Part shown: in pieces, positions 7,051 to 46,634 of the stretch
Layout of the letters: the number at the start of each line of letters is the position of its first letter
How positions within the stretch are numbered: the stretch's first letter is position 1
Assembly: GCA_018822105.1 (NCBI GenBank)
Contig: JAHJLB010000033.1
Location: 23,377 to 87,376 of the forward strand
Source: Pseudomonadota bacterium
GTDB taxonomy: Bacteria; Desulfobacterota; Desulfovibrionia; Desulfovibrionales; Desulfovibrionaceae
Direction: 5' to 3'
DNA length: 64,000 nucleotides
The notes under the pieces: generated by a model
Seen by the model: only the letters and a program-made list of their open reading frames with translations
Told to the model about the DNA's origin: nothing
Databases searched by the model: none
Program-made: the position numbers and the translations under genes

Positions 7051-7868
7051 GCTTCCAGTCCCTCGCCGCCTGGCGCAGGCTCTCCGGCCTGCTCGGCGGC
7101 TGCATCTTCCTCCTGATTCTGGCCGCCCTGGTGGACGGCATGATCTCCGGAGGCCTCAAGGACCCCTTCCAGCACGACCTGCTGCCGGGCCAGAGCGTCA
7201 AGCTCAGCAAGCCCATGCCCAACGGCGCGGAACGCCTGGAAGAGCTTGTCCTGCGCCCCTCCGACGCAAAGATTTCCGTGCGCTTCGAAGAATTGTTCAC
7301 CGGCTTCTGGATGGGCGGCACCCTTTGGCGCGCCGAGGCCACGCTGGCCCGGGACATCCCGGTGGGCCAGTACACCGTGACCGCCTTCCACCAGAACGGC
7401 ACCGCGGTCAGCCCGCCCCAGGCCTTCACCCTGCGCGTGCATCCCAGCGCCCAGGCCATCCTGGACGCGTCGGGTTCGCTCACCACGCGCATCCTGGGCC
7501 TGCAGCCCTACTTTCTGGCCCTCTGCCTGCTGCCCCTGGCCCCGCTGCCCCTGGCCGCCTGCTTCTGGCTCTCCCGCAGCATAGCCAGGACCCTGCGCGC
7601 CCAGCGCATGTGCGAGATCTACCGCTCCATGACCGCGCCTGCAGGATCGCCAGATGGCCCGCCGGGCGGCCAGCGCATCTTCTTCTGCCCGGGCCAGGGC
7701 CACGGCCTGGCCCCAGGCAGCGTGGTGGAGGTGCTGGACGAGGACGGGCAGGCCGTGCTCGGGATTGCGGATGTTACTGAAACCATTCATGAAGACGTCA
7801 CAGCCGTCCTGCGCGAGGGGCTCCACGTGCGCCCCGGCGCCCTGGTCCGGCTGCCCCCGGCGCCATAG
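7047..7868 (+). CDS. Membrane protein (N-terminal TM, middle TM pair, soluble C-terminal beta-rich domain), unknown function
   Basis: ATG 7047 is translationally coupled to the preceding gene. Balanced composition (MSFQSLAAWRRLSGLLGGCIFLLILAALV...). The upstream part of track ORF 6900..7868 is the wrong start. Confidence 0.7.
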   Translation: MSFQSLAAWRRLSGLLGGCIFLLILAALVDGMISGGLKDPFQHDLLPGQSVKLSKPMPNGAERLEELVLRPSDAKISVRFEELFTGFWMGGTLWRAEATLARDIPVGQYTVTAFHQNGTAVSPPQAFTLRVHPSAQAILDASGSLTTRILGLQPYFLALCLLPLAPLPLAACFWLSRSIARTLRAQRMCEIYRSMTAPAGSPDGPPGGQRIFFCPGQGHGLAPGSVVEVLDEDGQAVLGIADVTETIHEDVTAVLREGLHVRPGALVRLPPAP

Positions 7869-8054
7869 GCCTTTCATTCCCCCCGGCCCTGGCCGGGCCG
7901 GACCTGCGGCCCGGCACCCCCCCCGGTCCCTCCCCGACCGCAAGACGACGCCATTTCGCCTGAACCCGCCCCTTGCCCCCTTCCCTTGAAAACCGTATTC
8001 AGGTAGACGGCTGCGTTCCAAAAAGTTCAGTTTGTTTTTAGGGGGTTTGATGAC

Positions 8055-9926
8055 ATGATTGAGGCGTACATCGGCCTGCTGATCTTCTGGCCCCTGGCCG
8101 CCGGGCTCGCCTGCCTGGGCCTTCGCGGTCCTGGCGCGCGCTCGGCGCTGGTCCTGGCCACCGGCGCTGTTCTGGCCGCCGGCGCGGTCGGCCTGGCCAC
8201 CCAGACCCCGCTGGCCCTGAACCCGGCCTTCCTGTCCTGCGCAACCGCGCTGCACGTGGCCCAGGCCGCGGCCTTCCTGTTTCCGGCCTACTTCCTGTTC
8301 CAGGGCATCCGCGAGAAGCACGGGCTGGTCATGCTCTTCGCCAGCGCCCAGCTGGCCCTGGCCGCCTATGGCGAGTTCGGGCTGCCCGCGCCCCGGGCGG
8401 CCCAGGACGCCGTGTTCTGCGACGGCCTGGCCCTGGCCCTGGTGCTGGTGGCCTCCCTGGTGGGCTCGCTCATCAGCATCTTCGCCCTGCCCTACATGCA
8501 GCGCCATGAGGAGCACCTGCACCTCAAGACCTCGCGCCAGCCGCAGTTCTTCCTCATCCTGCTGGCCTTCCTGGGCCTCATGAACGGCCTGGCCCTGGCG
8601 GGCGACCTGCGCCTGTTCGCGGCCTTCTTCGAGGGCACCACGCTGTGCTCGTATTTGCTCATCGGCCACGACCGCACCGCCGAGGCCAAGAAGAGCGCCC
8701 TGCGCGCCCTGTGGATGAACTGCATGGGCGGCATGTTCCTGCACGCGGGCATCCTCCTCGCCCAGAAGCAGTTCGGCCTGGCCGGCATCCGCGAGCTGGC
8801 CAGCCCGGCCCTGTGGGCCGGCGCCACCCTGCTCCCCCTCGCGCTCATCCTTGTGGCCGCCTGCGTCAAGGCCGCCCAGCTGCCCTTCCAGGCCTGGCTG
8901 CTGGGCGCCATGGTCGCGCCCACGCCGGTCTCGGCGCTTCTGCACTCCAGCACCATGGTCAAGGTGGGCGTGTTCGTGTGCCTGCGCCTGGCCCCGGTGC
9001 TTGAAGGCACCACCACCGGACGCATCCTGACCCTGGCCGGGGCCTTGACCTTCCTGGGCGCTTCCGCCCTGGCCCTGGGCCAGAGCAACGCCAAGAAGAT
9101 CCTGGCTTACTCCACCGCCGCCAACCTGGGGCTGATCATCGCCTGCGCGGGCATCGGCACGCCCACGGCCATCGCCGCGGGAGTGGTGCTGCTGGTCATC
9201 CACGCCGTGACCAAGGGGCTTTTGTTCCTCTGCGTGGGCGACATGGAGCAGACCGTGGGCAGCCGCGACCTGGAGGACCTGCGCGGCATCCTCGCCAAGA
9301 CCCCGCTGACGGCCCTGGCCGCCAGCGCCGGCGCCATGGCCATGATCCTGCCGCCCCTGGGCATGCTGGCGGGCAAATGGGCCGCCCTGGAGGCCGCCAG
9401 CGCCAGCCCCGCGGCCATGGTCATGCTGGCCGTGGGCAGCGCGCTGGGCGTGGTCTGCTGGGTGCGCTTCAGCGGCACCCTCATGGGCGGCGTGGCCGTG
9501 GGCCCGCAGCCCGCGCACGCCTCCGGCCTCACCAGCGGGCCCATCCTGGCCCTGCTGGCCGGGGCCGTGGGCCTGGGCATGGCCGCCCCCTGGCTCAACG
9601 CCCTGCTCCTGCCCGCGGGCCAGGGCAGCCCCCTGGCCGGAGGCTGGGGCCTCCTGCCGCCACTGTTCGCCACGGCCATGCTGGCCTGGATCGCCGGCCT
9701 GAAGGTGCTGGGCCGCCAGAGCCTGCAGCCCCTGGCCGCCCCGTACGTCGGCGGCCTGCCCCAGGCCCGGCCGGGCAGCTTCGTCGGCGCCCTGGGCCGC
9801 AACTGGACCCTGTCCGAGGGCAACGAGTACGCCCCGGAGCTCTTCGGCGAAGCGAAACTGACCAGGCTGGCCGGAGCCCTGGCCATCGCCCTGCTCCTCG
9901 CCCTGGTGGGAGGTGCGCTCATATGA
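8055..9926 (+). CDS. echA: Energy-converting [NiFe] hydrogenase membrane subunit EchA (NuoL/HyfB-like antiporter subunit)
   Basis: 623 aa, polytopic. GGGGG SD. First of six genes in the order L-like, H-like, B-like, C-like, D-like, I-like, which is the Ech gene order. Confidence 0.85.
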
Positions 9927-39064: not shown

Positions 39065-39173
39065 ACCTTTGCCCATATTGGCCGATCAGTCCACATGCGG
39101 TGAAACGCCGCGACGCTGGGGGCGTCTGTCATGCAGGCCCCAGTGATCGCGCCATCACCGCAGGAGGCCATTG

Positions 39174-39782
39174 GTGCGTAAACTCTGCCTGACCGCCCTG
39201 CTCTGCCTGACCGCGCTGTCCGCTTGCGGCTGCGCGGCCATGCCCGTTTTCATGGTCGGGGACGTGCTGGCCGTGGCCGAGGCCGGGAAGACGGGCTTCG
39301 ACATGGCCGCAGGGCTGAACACGCGCCAGAGCATAGAGCAGGACATGAGTCCCGACGCCCAGACCGAGGCCCGGCTGCGCGCCGTGCTGCAGGCCCAGGG
39401 CGGGATGCTGGCCCGCGCCACCCCGCACGTGAGCCAGGGCCGCGCCTATGTGGTGGGCTCCTACGGCAGCGCCAAAGAGTTGGAGCGCGCCCAGGCGGCC
39501 ACGCGCAACGTCAAGGGCGTACGGGAGATGACGCTGTGCCTGTTCCCGGCGGGCTCGGGCCGCGCGCGGCAGACCGGCGTCACCGACGGCGAGGTGCGCG
39601 ACAGCATCCTGCGCATGAGCGGGGTGCGCACGCGCGAGGTGCGCGTGCAGGTGGTGGAGGGCAACGCCGTGCTGGTGGGCCTGGTGCGCACGGCCGCCGA
39701 GCGCGACCGCCTGAGCCAGTCCGCGCACGACGCCGGGGCCGCCACCGTGCGCAACTACGTGCGGCTTCTGGCCGCGCGGTAG
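39174..39782 (+). CDS. BON-domain lipoprotein
   Basis: AGGAGG then GTG 39174 (TTG 39171 also possible). Lipobox LTALSACG. Two BON-like segments (GVREMTL..., VRVQVVEGNAVLVGLVRT). Confidence 0.75.
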   Translation: MRKLCLTALLCLTALSACGCAAMPVFMVGDVLAVAEAGKTGFDMAAGLNTRQSIEQDMSPDAQTEARLRAVLQAQGGMLARATPHVSQGRAYVVGSYGSAKELERAQAATRNVKGVREMTLCLFPAGSGRARQTGVTDGEVRDSILRMSGVRTREVRVQVVEGNAVLVGLVRTAAERDRLSQSAHDAGAATVRNYVRLLAAR

Positions 39783-40019: not shown

Positions 40020-40574
40020 TCACATAGGCATCAATCGTTCCTGTTTGCACCGGTCAAGTACTTCATTAAGATTTGCGAAGGTCTCGTTACGTATCTTCTC
40101 TACATATAATGCTTCTTTAAAATCAAGAACAGCCTTGTCTACGCGCTTGAATCTGTCTGGCTCCACTTGCAAAGCAAATGAATTCACCTGCCTTTCCCAG
40201 AACCACTCCGCGGAACAGAATTGGATATATTCCGGATTGACAGTCTCAAGTTCTTTCAGCGCCTCAAACAGCCTTCGCCCCAAAGCACTGTTCTCGATAC
40301 AGAGCGCAACGTAGGCAATCCTGTACTCCACCTTGGCGGTAGAACCTACTATTTGAAATGACTTGAGATCGTACGCTTCTTTCTGCCCGTTGCAGGAAAA
40401 ATGCCCATAACAACTTTGCATGGTGAAGCAATACGGCAATGTATTGAGTCCATTAACGAGGCCGATTATTGGGACGTCAATCATGTCGTCGGTGAGACAG
40501 CACAGTGCGTTATGCCTTTGCGCTCGATAATGCGAATTTTCCGCAAAGTCCTTTCGTGCAGTGAATGTTTCCAA
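40020..40574 (-). CDS. Orphan protein in AT-rich islet, no family recognised
   Basis: 184-aa ORF with normal amino-acid composition (…IIGLVNGLNTLPYCFTMQSCYGHF…). GC visibly far below the flanks (one 60-nt line counted at 35%). The only start is TTG 40574 with poor SD spacing, so it may be 5'-truncated. Confidence 0.5.
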   Translation of the reverse strand: METFTARKDFAENSHYRAQRHNALCCLTDDMIDVPIIGLVNGLNTLPYCFTMQSCYGHFSCNGQKEAYDLKSFQIVGSTAKVEYRIAYVALCIENSALGRRLFEALKELETVNPEYIQFCSAEWFWERQVNSFALQVEPDRFKRVDKAVLDFKEALYVEKIRNETFANLNEVLDRCKQERLMPM

Positions 40575-40636: not shown

Positions 40637-41581
40637 CTAGGGCCTGCAGCCGCCGCTCCCGCAGGCGAAGATGCGCTCGATGACCTTCAGGACCTCCAGC
40701 CCGTCCTCGCCGGTGATGGGCGCCGGCGTCTTGTGGCGCACGGCCGCGAGGAAGGCCGTCAGCTCCTCCTTCACCGGCTCGCGGTAGACCATGGGCCACT
40801 CGCGCACGGAGTAGCTCTTGTCGTAGGTGGAGAACTGGCTGTATTCCTTCACGTCCTGGGTCACCAGGTCGGCGGCGATGAACTTCGACTTGGCCGCCAC
40901 GCGGATCTTGCGCGACTTGTACGGCGTCACCCAATTGGTGTTCACGTTGGCCAGCACCCCGTTGGCCATCTGCGCGGTGATGAGGGCGTTGTCCTCGTGC
41001 CCGCCGGTGCTCGAGGTCATGACCGCGTACACCTGGCTGAACTCCGAGCCGGTCAGGAAGCGGATCAGGTCGATGTCGTGGGAGCCCAGGTCGCGGATGA
41101 CGCCCACGTCCTGGATGCGCGGCGGGTACGGCCCCACGCGCTCGATCTGGATGGAGATGACGTCGCCGCTGTCGGCGCCCACCAGTTCCTTGACGCGCTG
41201 CACCGCCGGGTTGAAGCGCTCGATGTGGCCGACCATGAGCGGCACGCCCGCCGCCTTGGCCGCGGCCACCAGCTCCGCGCCCTCGGCCGAGGTGGCGGCC
41301 AGGGGCTTTTCGATGAGCAGGGCCGCGCCGCTGGCGATGACCTTGAGGCCCACGGCGTGGTGCAGGCTGGTGGGCACGCAGACGCTCACGGCGTCCAGGC
41401 CCCTGGCCAGGAGGTCGTCCAGGTTGGTGAACGTGGGCACGCCGAAGCGCGCGGCCACCTCGTCCAGGGCCGCCTGGTCCGTGTCCACCACGCCCATGAC
41501 CTCAACCCCGTGCATCTCGCTGTAGTTGCGCAGATGCACCTTGCCCATCCAGCCCAGGCCGATGACGCCGACTTTCTGCAT
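40637..41581 (-). CDS. Gfo/Idh/MocA family NAD(P)-dependent oxidoreductase
   Basis: ATG 41581. MQKVGVIGLGWMGKVHLRNY...EKPLA...GHIERFNP. Confidence 0.85.
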   Translation of the reverse strand: MQKVGVIGLGWMGKVHLRNYSEMHGVEVMGVVDTDQAALDEVAARFGVPTFTNLDDLLARGLDAVSVCVPTSLHHAVGLKVIASGAALLIEKPLAATSAEGAELVAAAKAAGVPLMVGHIERFNPAVQRVKELVGADSGDVISIQIERVGPYPPRIQDVGVIRDLGSHDIDLIRFLTGSEFSQVYAVMTSSTGGHEDNALITAQMANGVLANVNTNWVTPYKSRKIRVAAKSKFIAADLVTQDVKEYSQFSTYDKSYSVREWPMVYREPVKEELTAFLAAVRHKTPAPITGEDGLEVLKVIERIFACGSGGCRP

Positions 41582-41708
41582 GTGTGCTCTCCCGTTGCAT
41601 GTGCGGATCCGCCCGCTCTGCGGGCTGCGGGTTTCGTACATGCTCCGCCCCGGCAATGCAACCGCCGCCCGGCTTGCCCACCTGGGCGATTCACGCTATC
41701 CCCAGGCC

Positions 41709-42851
41709 ATGAACATCCCCACCAATCCACGCGGCCCCGTCTGGATCAGCGCGGGCGAGGCCTCCGGCGACATCCACGCGGCCTCGCTCTTGTCCGCCCT
41801 GCGCGAACGCGAGCCCGACCTGCGCGCCATCGGCATGGGCGGCCCGGCCCTCTCGGCCGCCGGCTGCGACGTGCGCTTCCCCATGCGCCTCATCTCGCTT
41901 GTGGGCCTCACCGAGGTGCTCTCCGGCCTGCCGCGCATCCTGAAACTCCTGGGCGAGGTCAAGGACGCGCTCATCCGCACCAGGCCCCGCGCCCTCATCC
42001 TCATCGACTGCCCGGACTTCCACTTCCGCGTGGCGCGCATGGCGAAAAGACTCGGCATCCCGGTGTACTACTACGTGAGCCCCCAGGTCTGGGCCTGGCG
42101 CTCCGGGCGGGTGGAGTTCTTGCGCCGCTTCACGCGCCGGGTGCTGTGCATCCTGCCATTTGAAAAAGGCTTCTACGCCGGGCGCGGCATGGACGTGGAC
42201 TACGTGGGCCACCCGCTCATGGACCAGATGCCCCTGGCCGAGCTGGACGCCCTGGCCCCCGACCCGAACCTGCTGGGCCTGCTGCCGGGCAGCCGCCGCA
42301 AGGAGGTCAGCGCGCTGCTGCCGGAGTTCGCCCGCACGGCCCTGCTGCTGCGGCGCGGGCTCCCGGACCTGCGCGTGGCCATGGCCCGGGCCCCGGGGCT
42401 GGAGCCGGAGTTCCTGCGCAGCTTCCTGCCGCCGGAATTGCCGGTCACAATCTTCGAGCCCGGGGAGCGCTACCGCATGATGCGCCTGTGCCGCGCGCTG
42501 CTGGCGGCCAGCGGCACGGTGACGCTGGAGGCGGCGCTCATCGGCACGCCCCTGGTCATGTCCTACCGCTTCTCGCGCCTGAGCTACGCCATCGGCAAGA
42601 TGGTGGTGAAGGTCAAGTTCGGCAGCCTGCCGAACCTCATCCTGGACCGCGAGGTGTACCCGGAGCTCATCCAGGACCGGGCCAGGGCGGAGCTCTTCGC
42701 CGCGCGCCTGCGGCCCTGGCTTGAGGACCAGGGGGCCAACGACGCGGCGCGGGCGGACCTGGCCGACCTGCGGGCCAGGGTGGGCGGGCCGGGCGCGGCG
42801 GGCCGCGCCGCGGAAATCATCCTGAACGACATCCGCGCCCTGGGGCGCTAG
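41709..42851 (+). CDS. lpxB: Lipid-A-disaccharide synthase
   Basis: ATG 41709. VWISAGEASGDIHAASLL...IDCPDFHFRVAR...YYVSPQVWAWR...GLLPGSRRKEV...ASGTVTLEAAL. Confidence 0.9.
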   Translation: MNIPTNPRGPVWISAGEASGDIHAASLLSALREREPDLRAIGMGGPALSAAGCDVRFPMRLISLVGLTEVLSGLPRILKLLGEVKDALIRTRPRALILIDCPDFHFRVARMAKRLGIPVYYYVSPQVWAWRSGRVEFLRRFTRRVLCILPFEKGFYAGRGMDVDYVGHPLMDQMPLAELDALAPDPNLLGLLPGSRRKEVSALLPEFARTALLLRRGLPDLRVAMARAPGLEPEFLRSFLPPELPVTIFEPGERYRMMRLCRALLAASGTVTLEAALIGTPLVMSYRFSRLSYAIGKMVVKVKFGSLPNLILDREVYPELIQDRARAELFAARLRPWLEDQGANDAARADLADLRARVGGPGAAGRAAEIILNDIRALGR

Positions 42852-42864
42852 AAAAAGGACACAC

Positions 42865-43173
42865 ATGGAAGCCGTGCGCGTGTACGCGGACATCCAGGGG
42901 CTCTCGCCCGAGGCCTATGAGGAGATCCGCCAGTCCATGCCCTTTGACCAGGTGGTGTACAAGGACCGCACCCTGGGCGTGGACTTCGAGGGCCACTACA
43001 TCGACGTGGAGCCCTTCCTGAACGACGTGGCCCGGCTCCTGGACGAGGACGGCTGGGGCAAGCTCGACTACATCGACCAGATCGACTACGCCCTCACGCG
43101 CTATGTCATCAAGAAGGGCGAGGTGCGGGCCGTGAACGTGATGCTGGACAACGTTATGGAAGGGGCGAGGTAG
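42865..43173 (+). CDS. Conserved-looking hypothetical protein (102 aa)
   Basis: Balanced acidic composition. Tightly spaced after lpxB and before yccF. Confidence 0.6.
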   Translation: MEAVRVYADIQGLSPEAYEEIRQSMPFDQVVYKDRTLGVDFEGHYIDVEPFLNDVARLLDEDGWGKLDYIDQIDYALTRYVIKKGEVRAVNVMLDNVMEGAR

Positions 43174-43175
43174 GC

Positions 43176-43574
43176 ATGAGGCTCATCGGCAATCTCATCT
43201 GGTTCCTTTTCGGCGGGCTGCTCATGGGCCTGGGCTGGTATCTGCTGGGCCTCGTCATGTTCATTTCCATCATCGGCATCCCCTGGGGCCGGGCCTGCTT
43301 CATGCTCGGGAGCTTCTGCCTGTGGCCCTTCGGCCGGGAGATCGTGAGCCGCCGCGACGTCACCGGGCAGGACGACATCGGCACCGGCACGCTGGGGCTC
43401 ATCGGCAACGTCATCTGGTTCTGCTGCGGCGGGGTCTGGCTGGCCATAGGCCACCTGGCCTCGGCCCTGGCCTGCTTCATCACCATCATCGGCATCCCCT
43501 TCGGCCTGCAGCACCTGAAGCTTGTGGGGGCGAGCATGGCGCCCATCGGGAAGACGGTGGTGGAGAGGGGATAG
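43176..43574 (+). CDS. yccF: YccF-domain inner membrane protein
   Basis: Duplicated GNLIWFLFGG...SIIGIPWG and GNVIWFCCGG...TIIGIPFG repeats. Confidence 0.85.
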   Translation: MRLIGNLIWFLFGGLLMGLGWYLLGLVMFISIIGIPWGRACFMLGSFCLWPFGREIVSRRDVTGQDDIGTGTLGLIGNVIWFCCGGVWLAIGHLASALACFITIIGIPFGLQHLKLVGASMAPIGKTVVERG

Positions 43575-43725
43575 GAGAGGGAAGGTGAATTTCAATAGAT
43601 TTTTGCTATGGCAATGTGCTCGATTGCATAAATTCCCCGCTTCAAGTATCTAGCCATATCGTCGTAGCAATATCGTCTTCGACTCAGCCGTAAGACCAAC
43701 CGACATCAAAATGGCGAGGCAGCAA

Positions 43726-45213
43726 ATGTTTAAAAGTGAAATTCGCGACAGTACGATTAACGCGCTCCTCGAAAAAGCTAGCGGCAGAAAGTACGGGCAG
43801 TATCTTGCGAAGGTCATTCTGAAACGAATTCGTGGCTTCTCGAATGAACCTGTCTCTTTTGATTTTCCTGTTACAGCACTGATTGGACCAAACGGTGGCG
43901 GGAAAACAACAATCCTTGGTGCCGCTGGCTGTGCCTATAAGAATATCAGCCCAGGCATCTTCTTTGCAAAAAGTGGTAAATATGATGAAAGTATGCAAGA
44001 CTGGTCAATTGAATATGAATTAATTGACAGAAACATTACAAGCAAGGATTCTCTACGGCGTACAGCAAATTTTAGAAACCGTCGGTGGAAAAGATATCCA
44101 ATAGATAGGGAGGTTTTGCTCTTCGGTGTATCTAGAACAGTTCCTGCGAATGAACGTAAGGAATTATTACGTTGTGCATCGAGTAGCTTCTCAGTTCCAG
44201 AAGCACATATTGAGGAACTGACCGATGCAGTGCACAGCGCAGTCTCTCGTATTCTTGGAAAGGACATTAGCGGCTACAAGAAACTCAAGATAGACAAGGC
44301 CGGGAGAGTCGCCTTGCTTACCGGGAAAACAAAAAGTGGAACTGGGTACTCAGAGTTCCATTTCGGTGCAGGAGAATCAAGCATCATCCGGATGGTATCA
44401 GAAATTGAGCTCGCCAGAGAGCAAGCTTTGGTTCTCATAGAAGAGATCGAGAACGGACTACACCCTGTTGCCACAGTCAGGATGGTTGAGTACCTCATTG
44501 ATGCCGCTGAGCGCAAAAAAATACAATGCATCTTTACTACGCATTCAAATGATGCGTTAAAGCCTCTACCAAAAAAGGCGATCTGGGTCGCAGTTCAAGA
44601 TCGCATTTTCCAGGGGAAACTTGACATCAAGTCTTTGCGCGCAATTACGGGTCAAATCGAAGCGAAGCTTGTCTGCTTTGTAGAAGACGCATTCGCAAAA
44701 GAGTGGGTTGAGGCAATGCTGCGACAAGCGTGCGGAGTTTCCATTGGCAGCATTCAAGTGCATGCGATGGAAGGTGATGGAATTGCAGTTGCAATCAATA
44801 GGAACCACAACAAAGACCCATCAATTACTGTCCCTTCCATATGCTACATCGACGGCGACTCCAAGCAAGATGCCCCCGAAGAGAACAGAATATACAGACT
44901 GCCAGGAGAATCGCCAGAATCGTACATATTTGACAAAATCATGGAGACATGGGGAGCAATAGGCGGAAAGCTTAGCGTAGCACTTCTTCAACGCTTTGAA
45001 GACACTGACCGAATCAAATCTGTATGTGAAGAAATTCGATTACTTTGCATGGATTCACACCTACTATTCTCCCAGATAGGTGAACGATTGGGGCTAGTCC
45101 CTGAAGCAACTGTAGCTGCAGCTTTTGTAAATATTTGGGCGCAGGCATACCCTGATGAGGTCAACGCCATACTTGAACCTGTTCGTAGCGTACTGCCAAC
45201 CGAGTCTGACTAA
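43726..45213 (+). CDS. ABC-type (AAA_15/21-like) ATPase fused to a Toprim/DUF4435-like C-terminal module; OLD/PARIS-like candidate defence protein
   Basis: Walker A GPNGGGKT (43885-43908), FGAGESS, Walker B LVLIEEIENGLHP, TTHS. The C-terminus has FVED and YIDGDS acidic motifs. ATG 43726 has GAGG 6 nt upstream; ATG 43711 is also open. The whole gene is AT-rich. Confidence 0.8.
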   Translation: MFKSEIRDSTINALLEKASGRKYGQYLAKVILKRIRGFSNEPVSFDFPVTALIGPNGGGKTTILGAAGCAYKNISPGIFFAKSGKYDESMQDWSIEYELIDRNITSKDSLRRTANFRNRRWKRYPIDREVLLFGVSRTVPANERKELLRCASSSFSVPEAHIEELTDAVHSAVSRILGKDISGYKKLKIDKAGRVALLTGKTKSGTGYSEFHFGAGESSIIRMVSEIELAREQALVLIEEIENGLHPVATVRMVEYLIDAAERKKIQCIFTTHSNDALKPLPKKAIWVAVQDRIFQGKLDIKSLRAITGQIEAKLVCFVEDAFAKEWVEAMLRQACGVSIGSIQVHAMEGDGIAVAINRNHNKDPSITVPSICYIDGDSKQDAPEENRIYRLPGESPESYIFDKIMETWGAIGGKLSVALLQRFEDTDRIKSVCEEIRLLCMDSHLLFSQIGERLGLVPEATVAAAFVNIWAQAYPDEVNAILEPVRSVLPTESD

Positions 45214-45268
45214 GCAAGCCCAAAGCGAGGTCAGCAACAGAGATGCCCCCCCCGCCCCCCCAACGAAC

Positions 45269-45306
45269 AAGGCCCCCACGATCGCTCGCAGGGGCCTTTC
45301 GTTTTT
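45269..45306 (+). terminator. Intrinsic terminator at the right edge of the AT-rich islet
   Basis: AAGGCCCC / GGGGCCTT stem followed by TCGTTTTT. Confidence 0.65.
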
Positions 45307-45329
45307 CCGGCGCCGTCAGGGAAGGCGCG

Positions 45330-46634
45330 CTACACGTCCGCGCCTTCGGGCACGGTTTCCGTGTTCAGCAGGCCCGCGCGCTCCAGCAGGTGGAAGACCA
45401 GCGACAGGAGCATGCCCACCACCGTGGCCAGCGCCATGCCCTTGAGCTGCACCGTGCCGAGCTTCACCGCCGCGCCGCTGATGCCCACGATGAAGGTGAT
45501 GGCCGTCAGGATCAGGTTGATGGGCTTGGAATAGTCCACCTTGGCCTCCACCAGCATGCGGATGCCCGAGGCCGCGATGACGCCGAACAGCAGGATGGAC
45601 ACGCCGCCGATGACCGGGGCCGGGATGGACTGGATGAAGGCGGAGAGCTTGCCGATGAAGGCCAGGGCGATGGAGATCACCGCCGCCCCGCCGATGACCC
45701 AGACCGAGTACACGCGGGTGATGGCCATGACCCCGATGTTCTCGCCATACGTGGTGGTCGGCACGGAGCCGAAGAAGCCGGAGAGCACCGTGGACACGCC
45801 GTCGCTCATGAGCGAGCGGTGCAGGCCGGGGTTCTTGATCAGGTCGCGGTCCACGATGTTGCCCGTGACCACCAAATGCCCGATGTGCTCGCTGATGACC
45901 ACCAGCGCCGCCGGGATGATGATGAGCACGGCGTTCAGGTCGAACCTGGGCACGTACACCGTGGGCAGGGCCAGCACGGGCGCGGCCAGCATGGCGTCGA
46001 AGGTGACGATGCCCAGGCCGAGGGAGGTGGCGTAGCCGGCCAGGATGCCGATCAGGACCGGGATGATGGCCAGGAAGCCCCGGAACAGGAGCGAGCCGAA
46101 GGCCACGGTCAAGAGCGTGACCATGGAGACGATGATGGCGTTCATGTCATAGCCGCCGGTCTTGGCGTCGGGCATGATGCCCGCCATGCCCGTGGCCACG
46201 CTGGCCAGCTCCAGGCCGATCAAGGCCACGATGGGCCCCATGGTGGCCGGGGGCAGCACGGTCTTGATCCAGTCGGACCCGAACTTCCAGATGATCAGGG
46301 CCACCAGGATGAACACGCAGCCCGAGGCGATGAACCCGCCCAGGGCGAAGGAGTAGTTGCCGCCCCAGAGGGCCTGGTTGGCGCCCAGCACCACGAACAC
46401 CGGCGAGAGGAAGGCGAAGCTGGAGCCCAGGAACGCGGGCGCCCTGCCCTTGCACAAAAAGAGGTAGATGAGCGTGCCGATGCCGTTCATCAGGAGCACG
46501 ATGGAGGGATCGATCTTGAACAGGGTGGGCACCAGGACGCTCGCCCCGAACATGGCGAAAAGATGCTGGAAGCTTAGGGGGATGCCTTGAAGGAAGGGGA
46601 CCTTCTCCTCGACCTGGATGATTCTCCTGCTCAT
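45330..46634 (-). CDS. uraA: Uracil/xanthine permease (NCS2 family)
   Basis: 434 aa. LSFQHLFAMFGASVLVP...GENIGVMAITRV. Adjacent to upp. Confidence 0.85.
   Translation of the reverse strand: MSRRIIQVEEKVPFLQGIPLSFQHLFAMFGASVLVPTLFKIDPSIVLLMNGIGTLIYLFLCKGRAPAFLGSSFAFLSPVFVVLGANQALWGGNYSFALGGFIASGCVFILVALIIWKFGSDWIKTVLPPATMGPIVALIGLELASVATGMAGIMPDAKTGGYDMNAIIVSMVTLLTVAFGSLLFRGFLAIIPVLIGILAGYATSLGLGIVTFDAMLAAPVLALPTVYVPRFDLNAVLIIIPAALVVISEHIGHLVVTGNIVDRDLIKNPGLHRSLMSDGVSTVLSGFFGSVPTTTYGENIGVMAITRVYSVWVIGGAAVISIALAFIGKLSAFIQSIPAPVIGGVSILLFGVIAASGIRMLVEAKVDYSKPINLILTAITFIVGISGAAVKLGTVQLKGMALATVVGMLLSLVFHLLERAGLLNTETVPEGADV

Follow-up and report, generated by a model that had tools for sequence, protein, structure and literature searches.

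The window analyzed here, i.e., the whole stretch of 64,000 nucleotides (nt), belongs to the chromosome of a Humidesulfovibrio-like member of the Desulfovibrionaceae, a sulfate reducer rich in guanine plus cytosine (GC). Between the core genes yccF and uraA, the window harbors an AT-rich islet whose sole credible open reading frame (ORF), located at 43711..45213 on the + strand, encodes up to 500 amino acids (aa). This gene is very probably a horizontally acquired and intact copy of HEC-04, a single-gene anti-phage system whose product joins an ABC-type ATPase to a divergent Toprim domain. The protein matches the PADLOC model HEC-04 (PDLC04149) along its full length (E = 1e-222, 738 bits, query residues 6-497 on profile positions 1-491 of 494). 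The next PADLOC matches, i.e., AriA, the retron I-B ATPase-Toprim, NsnB, AbiLi, GajA, and PtuA, fall more than 650 bits below HEC-04 and, with the exception of the retron model, are confined to the ATPase core. The C-terminal domain alone matches HEC-04 at 7.8e-62 and no other PADLOC family.

The HEC-04 protein that has been tested experimentally, WP_044502283.1 of Escherichia coli MOD1-EC5853, is 490 aa long according to its gene coordinates; its first ~400 residues are printed in Table S2, and the comparison, limited to these, disclosed 52% identity and 69% positives with the window protein over 396 aa (E = 1e-149). Residues K62, E319, D375, and D377 of the tested protein align with K65, E325, D381, and D383 (residue numbers are counted from the ATG at 43711). 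A previous analysis of the letters of this DNA (hereafter, the sequence-only reading) had considered the gene a possible minimal or undescribed stand-alone variant, a view that gives way to membership in a family already described. When cloned alone into E. coli, HEC-04 lowers plaquing, and both its K62A and its E319A/D375A/D377A mutants lose defense; the HEC-04 strains were tested without isopropyl β-D-1-thiogalactopyranoside because of apparent toxicity (Payne et al., bioRxiv 10.1101/2024.01.29.577857). The system is active against T4 and T5 and inactive against T7 and lambda (PMC12111858). PADLOC also assigns to HEC-04 the IbfA protein of IncI1 plasmids, which aborts infection with a P22-like phage, leaving phage DNA replication unaffected, with early transcripts increased, late transcripts decreased, and no lysis (PMC12111858). 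The ibfA gene was retrieved (L087:2501-4054, 518 aa, beside a ProQ/FinO gene). The alignment of its product to the family profile spans 422 columns (39-494 versus 22-502; hhalign probability 99.4%, E = 3.8e-21); the product shares 25-28% identity with the window protein in tblastn, and scores only 141 bits against the PADLOC HEC-04 model; compared with the 738 bits of the window protein, this indicates that the latter is a core HEC-04 member and IbfA a distant branch of the family. The anti-phage role proposed in the sequence-only reading is, thus, borne out at the family level by HEC-04 and IbfA, and by analogy with them it may be extended to the window copy. Since about half of the residues differ from those of the tested HEC-04, the phage specificity may differ as well.

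The horizontal acquisition of the gene, which had also been proposed from the sequence, is supported by its composition and distribution; homologues elsewhere, moreover, are carried by viral contigs and lie beside integrases. The GC content at third codon positions (GC3) is 0.43 in the ORF versus 0.94-0.97 in lpxB, yccF, uraA, and upp, and the gene is absent from all the relatives compared, i.e., 13 genome relatives (L001-L013) and 11 metagenome relatives, all harboring the lpxB-orf102-yccF arrangement.

Motifs, fold, and family of the HEC-04 protein

Two in-frame ATG codons are available. The one at 43726 (495 aa) appears likelier than the one at 43711, because it is preceded by GAGG (43716-43719) with a 6-nt spacer, a likely ribosome-binding site judging from the sequence, and because position 1 of the HEC-04 profile aligns with residue 6. 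A look-up of the exact protein from either start codon returned no record. The gene and its motifs, all found at the places given in the sequence-only reading for those that it listed, are the following:

43726..45213 (495 aa), or from 43711 (500 aa), + strand: HEC-04 family gene (PADLOC HEC-04; identity with E. coli HEC-04)
43885..43908, + strand: Walker A motif GPNGGGKT, from residue 59, with K65
44362..44382, + strand: ABC signature-like motif FGAGESS, from residue 218, within SEFHFGAGESS
44428..44451, + strand: Walker B motif LVLIEEIE, with E244/E245, aligned with the Walker B of PtuA, TsOLD, and P2 Old
44536..44547, + strand: H-loop TTHS, from residue 276, with H278, aligned with the THS of PtuA and TsOLD
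44653..45210, + strand: C-terminal Toprim plus helical domain, residues about 315-500 (domain model and fold matches)
44677..44688, + strand: acidic motif FVED of Toprim strand 1, from residue 323, with E325
44767..44781, + strand: motif MEGDG after Toprim strand 2
44848..44862, + strand: Toprim DxD motif IDGDS, from residue 380, with D381 and D383

GPNGGGKT, FGAGESS (together with the whole SEFHFGAGESS), the Walker B motif (LIEEIENG, from residue 242), TTHS, FVED, and IDGDS do not vary among 27 homologues, which belong to several phyla and share 62-74% identity with the window protein; FGAGESS aligns with MSAGEQK of IbfA. In MEGDG, M353, G355, D356, and G357 are invariant and E354 varies; its invariance and its position in the model make it a candidate second-metal ligand.

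Among Pfam families, only ATPase ones are matched by the protein (AAA_21, AAA_15, and AAA_23), and NCBIfam gave no match above its curated cut-offs. Searches against PDB sequences, with the single sequence or with a profile, did not extend beyond the ATPase core of PtuA and TsOLD. The Toprim domain is, according to the structure models, recognizable by fold only. The full-length model, built from the 27 homologues, has a mean pLDDT (predicted value of the local distance difference test) of 74.7, with high confidence in the C-terminal half and moderate confidence in the ATPase half. In the PDB, it is best matched by the class 1 OLD protein of Thermus scotoductus (TsOLD, 6P74; E = 3.5e-11), followed by retron and Septu PtuA, Gabija GajA, and SMC heads (E from 1e-7 to 3.5e-11). 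The global template modeling (TM) scores of this search were low (~0.33); since a differing orientation of the domains lowers the global TM, the C-terminal domain was modeled apart. Residues 312-500 alone yielded a pLDDT of 93 and a predicted TM-score of 0.88, with the strand-helix alternation of a Toprim followed by a six-helix bundle; in this model, FVED lies at the end of strand 1, MEGDG after strand 2, and IDGDS at the end of strand 3. Its five top PDB hits (6NJX, 6NJW, 6NK8, and 6NJV) come from two class 2 OLD proteins, those of Xanthomonas and Burkholderia, of which they represent the C-terminal Toprim and helical region (TM 0.46-0.51, probability 0.99-1.00, E from 2e-3 to 9e-3), and GajA, TsOLD, and retron Eco8 follow as weaker matches. 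Payne et al. likewise compared HEC-04 with 6NK8 (bioRxiv 10.1101/2024.01.29.577857). The fusion of an ABC-type ATPase with a Toprim, envisaged in the sequence-only reading, is, therefore, upheld by 6P74 as best full-length match and by 6NJX and 6NK8 as best C-terminal ones; of the profile and fold searches that the same reading had proposed, those for the family and for the fold were successful (HEC-04 and Toprim, respectively), and the C-terminal domain matched no Toprim or DUF4435 model of Pfam, even at E <= 10. The search of the C-terminal fold against viral predicted structures gave no significant match (best E = 0.07).

On these grounds, a mechanism in three steps may be proposed. The ABC ATPase head (K65, the signature AGES, E244/E245, and H278) would act as infection sensor and switch; nucleotide binding would then license the Toprim site (E325/D326, D356, and D381/D383) for the metal-dependent cleavage of nucleic acids; finally, cleavage would halt phage development at a cost for the cell. 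In the E. coli homologue, the Walker A lysine and the E/DxD residues are essential, and its over-expression is toxic (bioRxiv 10.1101/2024.01.29.577857); IbfA shows an abortive phenotype (PMC12111858). The substrate is somewhat more probably DNA, nicked or degraded as by the OLD nucleases, because the nearest folds belong to nucleases acting on DNA and because Vc OLD, of class 1, nicks DNA (PMC12392090). RNA or tRNA is the less probable target, to be considered because IbfA spares phage DNA replication.

The sequence-only reading had also remarked that the gene has no partner, which is in agreement with the analysis of the homologues. Their neighbors differ in all the seven contexts inspected (Geothrix, an Acidiferrales metagenome-assembled genome, Burkholderia, Acidiphilium, and three other contigs) and include a phage-type integrase (Geothrix and Burkholderia), an Mrr-type restriction enzyme, and housekeeping genes; the small ORFs beside the homologues in these contexts, which might have concealed a partner, resemble neither one another nor the window. 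HEC-04 acts, then, as a single gene, without a conserved partner.

The family is of moderate size: more than 2160 clusters (90% identity) were found at E <= 1e-5 in a set of 8000 examined candidates, and an exhaustive search yielded 121 representatives (50% identity) at E <= 1e-30. Its conservation is striking: in Acidobacteriota, Alpha-, Beta-, and Gammaproteobacteria, and Cyanobacteriota, members share 62-74% identity with the window protein near full length, and up to 75% on a shorter overlap; moreover, homologues at 46-74% identity are located on 44 IMG/VR viral contigs. In 24 out of 25 sampled loci (L081-L135, L088-L131), the GC content of the gene is 2-18 points below that of the flanks (34-70%), which suggests either a frequent transfer or a persistent AT bias of the family. 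In Geothrix limicola (L081:6549-7595, - strand) and Burkholderia guangdongensis (L085:6575-7576, - strand), the homologue is convergent with a phage-type integrase located ~50-70 nt downstream; the position of these two homologues at the edge of an integrated element recalls that of old/tin in P2. Only two of the 44 viral loci carry a relative of the two query integrases in the flank, so that adjacency to an integrase is no rule.

The variable slot downstream of yccF

The low-GC segment of the window is ~1.65 kb long (about 43590-45245) and its GC content is 46%, versus 68% window-wide. The abrupt drop between the yccF stop and the hairpin that had been pointed out from the sequence is evident in 200-nt windows, with GC values of 39.5-49.5% from 43600 to 45100 and of 60-78% in the flanks. 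In the 27 lines of 60 nt of the islet, GC values lie between 28 and 55% (mean 46%), the lowest (28%) beginning at 43981; outside both low-GC islets of the window (the second one is described below), the 60-nt lines have a mean GC of 68.9% with a standard deviation of 7.2%. All the 1650-nt windows with GC <= 50% across the 64 kb overlap the HEC-04 islet. In agreement with the sequence-only reading, neither an integrase nor a transposase was found among the ORFs listed in the islet, nor a helicase or a second credible ORF. The elements bordering the gene are the following:

43176..43574, + strand: yccF, core gene of 132 aa (Pfam YccF, 1.7e-35), left anchor of the slot
43575..43590, + strand: left junction, a G-rich stretch, GAGAGGGAAGG (alignment and blastn of the islet versus the relatives)
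43591..43725, + strand: AT-rich 5' leader of the insert (sequence read)
45246..45261, + strand: right junction, a C-rich tract at which the match to the relatives restarts (alignment and blastn)
45270..45306: core hairpin (fold energies and z-scores), whose stem is invariant in L001, L003, L004, L006, and L012
45330..46634, - strand: uraA-like permease, core gene (Pfam Xan_ur_permease, 8e-93), right anchor

Judging from its YccF, the host belongs with Humidesulfovibrio and related Desulfovibrionaceae. YccF is 75-91% identical across L001-L013, where the lpxB-orf102-yccF synteny is kept, and the uraA-like permease is 89-92% identical in the relatives. The small gene preceding yccF (42865-43173, + strand, 102 aa, without a Pfam family) stops 2 nt ahead of the yccF start and is 78-85% identical in all the relatives; it appears to encode a conserved small protein co-transcribed with yccF.

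At the left junction, the match to the relatives stops ~10-15 nt past the yccF stop. The comparison of the yccF-uraA junction, which the sequence-only reading had proposed as a check, revealed that the relatives lack the HEC-04 gene and that other low-GC cargos occur in the same place. In most of the relatives, a low-GC patch starts within ~10-15 nt of the yccF stop and, where uraA follows, closes at the C-rich tract ahead of the same conserved hairpin. The G-rich run after the yccF stop and the C-rich run before the hairpin bound the cargo in the window and in L003, L004, L006, and L012. Altogether, ~11 different low-GC cargos occupy the slot (43575-45262 in the window, from about 6397 in L001-L013), all on the yccF strand; those found in the relatives are as follows:

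L001:6406-7128, + strand, also in L136: 240 aa, without family
L003, yccF strand: FRG-domain protein (PADLOC PDC-S15, 1e-36)
L004 and L139, yccF strand: DUF4747 protein plus membrane protein
L006:6516-7688, + strand: 390 aa, without family
L007, yccF strand: SocA/Panacea antitoxin and 121-aa partner
L008, yccF strand: Schlafen-AlbA2 plus HATPase_c_4 protein
L012:6505-7623, + strand, also in L145: 372 aa, without family
L013:6454-6927, + strand: 157 aa, without family
L137 and L138, yccF strand: DUF5677 protein
L144:6161-6865, + strand: 234 aa, without family

The cargos of 240, 372, 390, 157, and 234 aa have no Pfam family above the cut-off and no PADLOC family; because of their neighbors in the slot, they are candidate undescribed defense or toxin genes. 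In L005, L009, and L011, the site is empty and the terminator hairpin lies 35-45 nt past yccF. After the DUF5677 cargo of L137, a metagenome relative, a HicB-family antitoxin-like gene of normal GC content is located (7842-8186, + strand; Pfam 1.7e-24).

The hairpin has a folding energy of -21.8 kcal/mol on the + strand and of -28.2 kcal/mol on the - strand (z-scores of -3.8 and -5.2) and was not picked up by a simple terminator scan; it is a probable bidirectional terminator, common to yccF/cargo and to uraA. The sequence-only reading had assigned it to the islet; since it is kept in relatives without the gene, it is instead a core sequence lying outside the insert. The cargo lies within the yccF transcription unit, and transcription of the HEC-04 gene probably starts in its own AT-rich leader or reaches it by read-through from yccF. 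No Rfam family was found in the leader at E <= 1; the only match in 42800-45800 (E = 0.47) falls on the terminator hairpin.

The boundaries of the cargo were inspected in six loci, and neither flanking direct or inverted repeats nor att- or attC-like sites were found, the sole outcome being short matches at chance level and the terminator stem; no recombinase or integrase gene accompanies the slot cargo. Because the islet holds nothing able to move it, a homologous replacement of cargo between the conserved flanks is the probable way in which the gene was acquired. It is conceivable, although still tentative, that in Humidesulfovibrio-like genomes the stretch of a few dozen nt from the yccF stop to the terminator is an integrase-free, orientation-locked, single-cassette hotspot, repeatedly replaced by different low-GC cargo; exchange would presumably occur by homologous recombination via the core flanks, and expression from the transcript of the host gene. 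To our knowledge, such an exchange mechanism has not been described for this lineage. Searching the text of PMC10121019 disclosed no citable wording on recombination-based hotspot exchange.

A second low-GC islet with one gene was observed in the window (40020-40574, - strand, 184 aa, GC 46%, GC3 0.51), flanked by a gene that on our own reading of the sequence is BON-like (39171-39782) and by a Gfo/Idh/MocA-like oxidoreductase gene (40637-41656). Its product has no Pfam or PADLOC family. The gene is missing from the relatives, where the flanking genes abut; L004 has another low-GC patch instead.

Alternative explanations

Some points weigh against the islet gene being a functional HEC-04 system that entered the genome as proposed. 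Identity with the tested homologue is no higher than 52%, and the assays on that homologue were carried out in E. coli with coliphages. In its ATPase half, the model has pLDDT values of 50-85, i.e., a moderate confidence only, and the Toprim was recognized through fold matches whose E-values are modest (2e-3 to 9e-3, TM ~0.5) together with the conservation of the motifs, the C-terminal domain having no Pfam Toprim or DUF4435 match at E <= 10. The fact that IbfA spares phage DNA replication (PMC12111858) is awkward for a DNA-degrading mechanism. Furthermore, no sigma-70-like promoter site was detected in the leader (43591-43725) by a simple scan restricted to sigma-70-type consensus sites, and the insertion route is deduced solely from the missing mobility genes and flanking repeats.

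The lack of a promoter-like site might suggest that the gene, although intact, is a silent or decaying passenger without a current function in its host, and the codon composition, far from that of the host, and the fact that the exact protein is on record nowhere else would fit this picture. However, the ORF is full length with respect to the family profile, all the invariant residues are kept, and the promoter scan covered only sigma-70-type consensus sites; moreover, the position of the gene on the yccF strand, upstream of the shared terminator, makes read-through transcription available, which also counts against a silent gene. A passenger of this kind is considered unlikely.

Equally improbable is that the protein is a canonical class 1 OLD nuclease, i.e., orthologous to P2 Old, TsOLD, or Vc OLD, and nicking or degrading DNA. 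A solitary ATPase-Toprim gene is class 1 OLD by genetic context (PMC10568477), and the window gene, with an ABC ATPase and a Toprim on one polypeptide, fits this definition; in addition, TsOLD is the top full-length fold match, the C-terminal domain matches OLD Toprim regions by fold, and Pfam AAA_15 is matched at 2e-15. The sequence models tell the two proteins apart: P2 Old scores OLD-like_TOPRIM (PF20469) at 1.2e-17, whereas neither the C-terminal domain of the window protein nor IbfA gives anything at E <= 10. P2 Old hits the PADLOC Old model at 712 bits, HEC-04 being outside its 25 best matches; conversely, the C-terminal domain of the window protein has no match to PADLOC Old, even at E <= 10, and this model is outside the 25 best of the 132 matches of the full protein. 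The alignment of the family profile with P2 Old includes just 77 columns around Walker B (hhalign, probability 93%). The window protein is also shorter (495 versus 586 aa), as the sequence-only reading had stated, and the ATPases of these systems are distinct in structure according to Payne et al. (bioRxiv 10.1101/2024.01.29.577857). Hence, as far as sequence models currently draw the OLD clade, the window protein is outside it; it probably works like an OLD nuclease all the same.

Much less probable is a fused PARIS system, in which AriA would be joined to an AriB-type DUF4435 Toprim cleaving tRNA when triggered by anti-restriction proteins. The PADLOC AriA models do match the ATPase core (1.7e-20, residues 110-280), a model of the AriAB fusion exists in PADLOC, and the IbfA phenotype, with DNA replication intact and late expression lost (PMC12111858), would suit an inhibition of translation; nevertheless, the AriA match is limited to the generic ABC core, no DUF4435/AriB match was found with the whole protein at E <= 1 or with its C-terminal domain at E <= 10, and, of 580 PDB fold matches, the 50 best include no AriB or PARIS entry and are led by OLD C-terminal regions. 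Because the Pfam models OLD-like_TOPRIM and DUF4435 do not match, and given the fold results, the DUF4435-like identity suggested in the sequence-only reading was rejected.

The chances of a retron type I-B (class 3 OLD) ATPase-Toprim are just as slender. The corresponding PADLOC model is matched at 1.1e-17 over residues 34-413, extending into the Toprim region, and Eco8 is among the weaker fold matches; the HEC-04 score, however, is ~12 times higher (738 versus 62 bits). Besides, the islet leaves only ~135 nt upstream and ~30 nt downstream of the gene, without a reverse-transcriptase ORF, there is no RNA family match in Rfam at E <= 1 except the chance-level one on the terminator, and no reverse transcriptase accompanies the homologues in the seven other contexts; this explanation fails because neither a reverse transcriptase nor an RNA is present. 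Finally, a housekeeping ATPase native to the genome, of the RecF/SMC-like or transporter type, with which the sequence-only reading would have expected the protein to cluster if its own proposal were wrong, is refuted by presence/absence and composition and has hardly any probability left: the weak NCBIfam/Pfam matches to RecF, SMC_N, and ABC_tran cover the P-loop region only and are far under the curated cut-offs, the gene is missing from all the relatives and has a GC3 of 0.43 versus 0.95, and the protein has a C-terminal nuclease-like domain.

HEC-04 in the context of known systems

As a find, the gene is ordinary, being an already described and tested HEC-04; the extension to the Desulfovibrionaceae of a defense family validated in E. 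coli is of modest value. A soluble, compact member of 495 aa could, nevertheless, serve the biochemistry of the trigger and target of the family. The locus is a more original lead than the gene, since it is a precisely bounded slot with several cargos without a known family, and, hence, a place to seek new defense genes and to study cassette exchange without a recombinase.

PARIS shares the same logic, i.e., an ABC ATPase sensor and a Toprim effector, but consists of two proteins (AriA, 53-55 kDa, and AriB, 35 kDa) or corresponds to an AriAB profile of 694 positions, in contrast with the single 495-aa protein of the window. The latter is ~80-100 aa shorter than Gabija GajA (8SM3) and the class 2 OLD proteins; the GajA models match only its ATPase core (1e-12 to 1e-14), and no UvrD/PcrA/Rep-like GajB ORF is present in the islet or in the flanks. 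Bp OLD (6NK8) and Xcc OLD (6NJX), both of class 2, provide, with their C-terminal regions made up of a Toprim and helices, the best structural matches of the C-terminal domain (TM 0.46-0.51). In the class 1 proteins (P2 Old, TsOLD 6P74, and Vc OLD, PMC12392090), as in HEC-04, both ATPase and nuclease residues are required for defense, and their length (528-586 aa) exceeds that of the window protein. TsOLD possesses a helical dimerization domain, whereas the ATPase insert of the window protein is predicted to be short and mostly beta: region 75-215 consists mainly of short strands with short helices at 82-85, 93-97, 146-155, and 172-182 (pLDDT 50-78), as read from the secondary structure only.

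IbfA (R64 and pUA1135; IncI1/IncX plasmids) has the same domain order, its YVEDD and LDGDK aligning with FVED and IDGDS, and it confers an abortive-infection phenotype as a single gene (PMC12111858). Unlike the window gene, it is plasmid-borne, co-transcribed with its neighbors, and encodes 518 aa; it is a distant relative and not an orthologue.

HEC-04 was discovered through its embedding in Hma (helicase-methylase-ATPase) systems, which is not a requirement, and Payne et al. picked candidates expected also outside hma loci (bioRxiv 10.1101/2024.01.29.577857). The window gene is outside any Hma system, its flanks being lpxB, orf102, yccF, uraA, and upp; HEC-04 is, thus, found here as an isolated cassette with housekeeping genes on both sides. 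The tested E. coli HEC-04 is the closest counterpart of the window protein: both are compact (490 versus 495 aa), encoded by a single gene, and made up of an ABC ATPase and a Toprim-plus-helical domain, the window copy differing in its host, a GC-rich member of the Desulfovibrionaceae.

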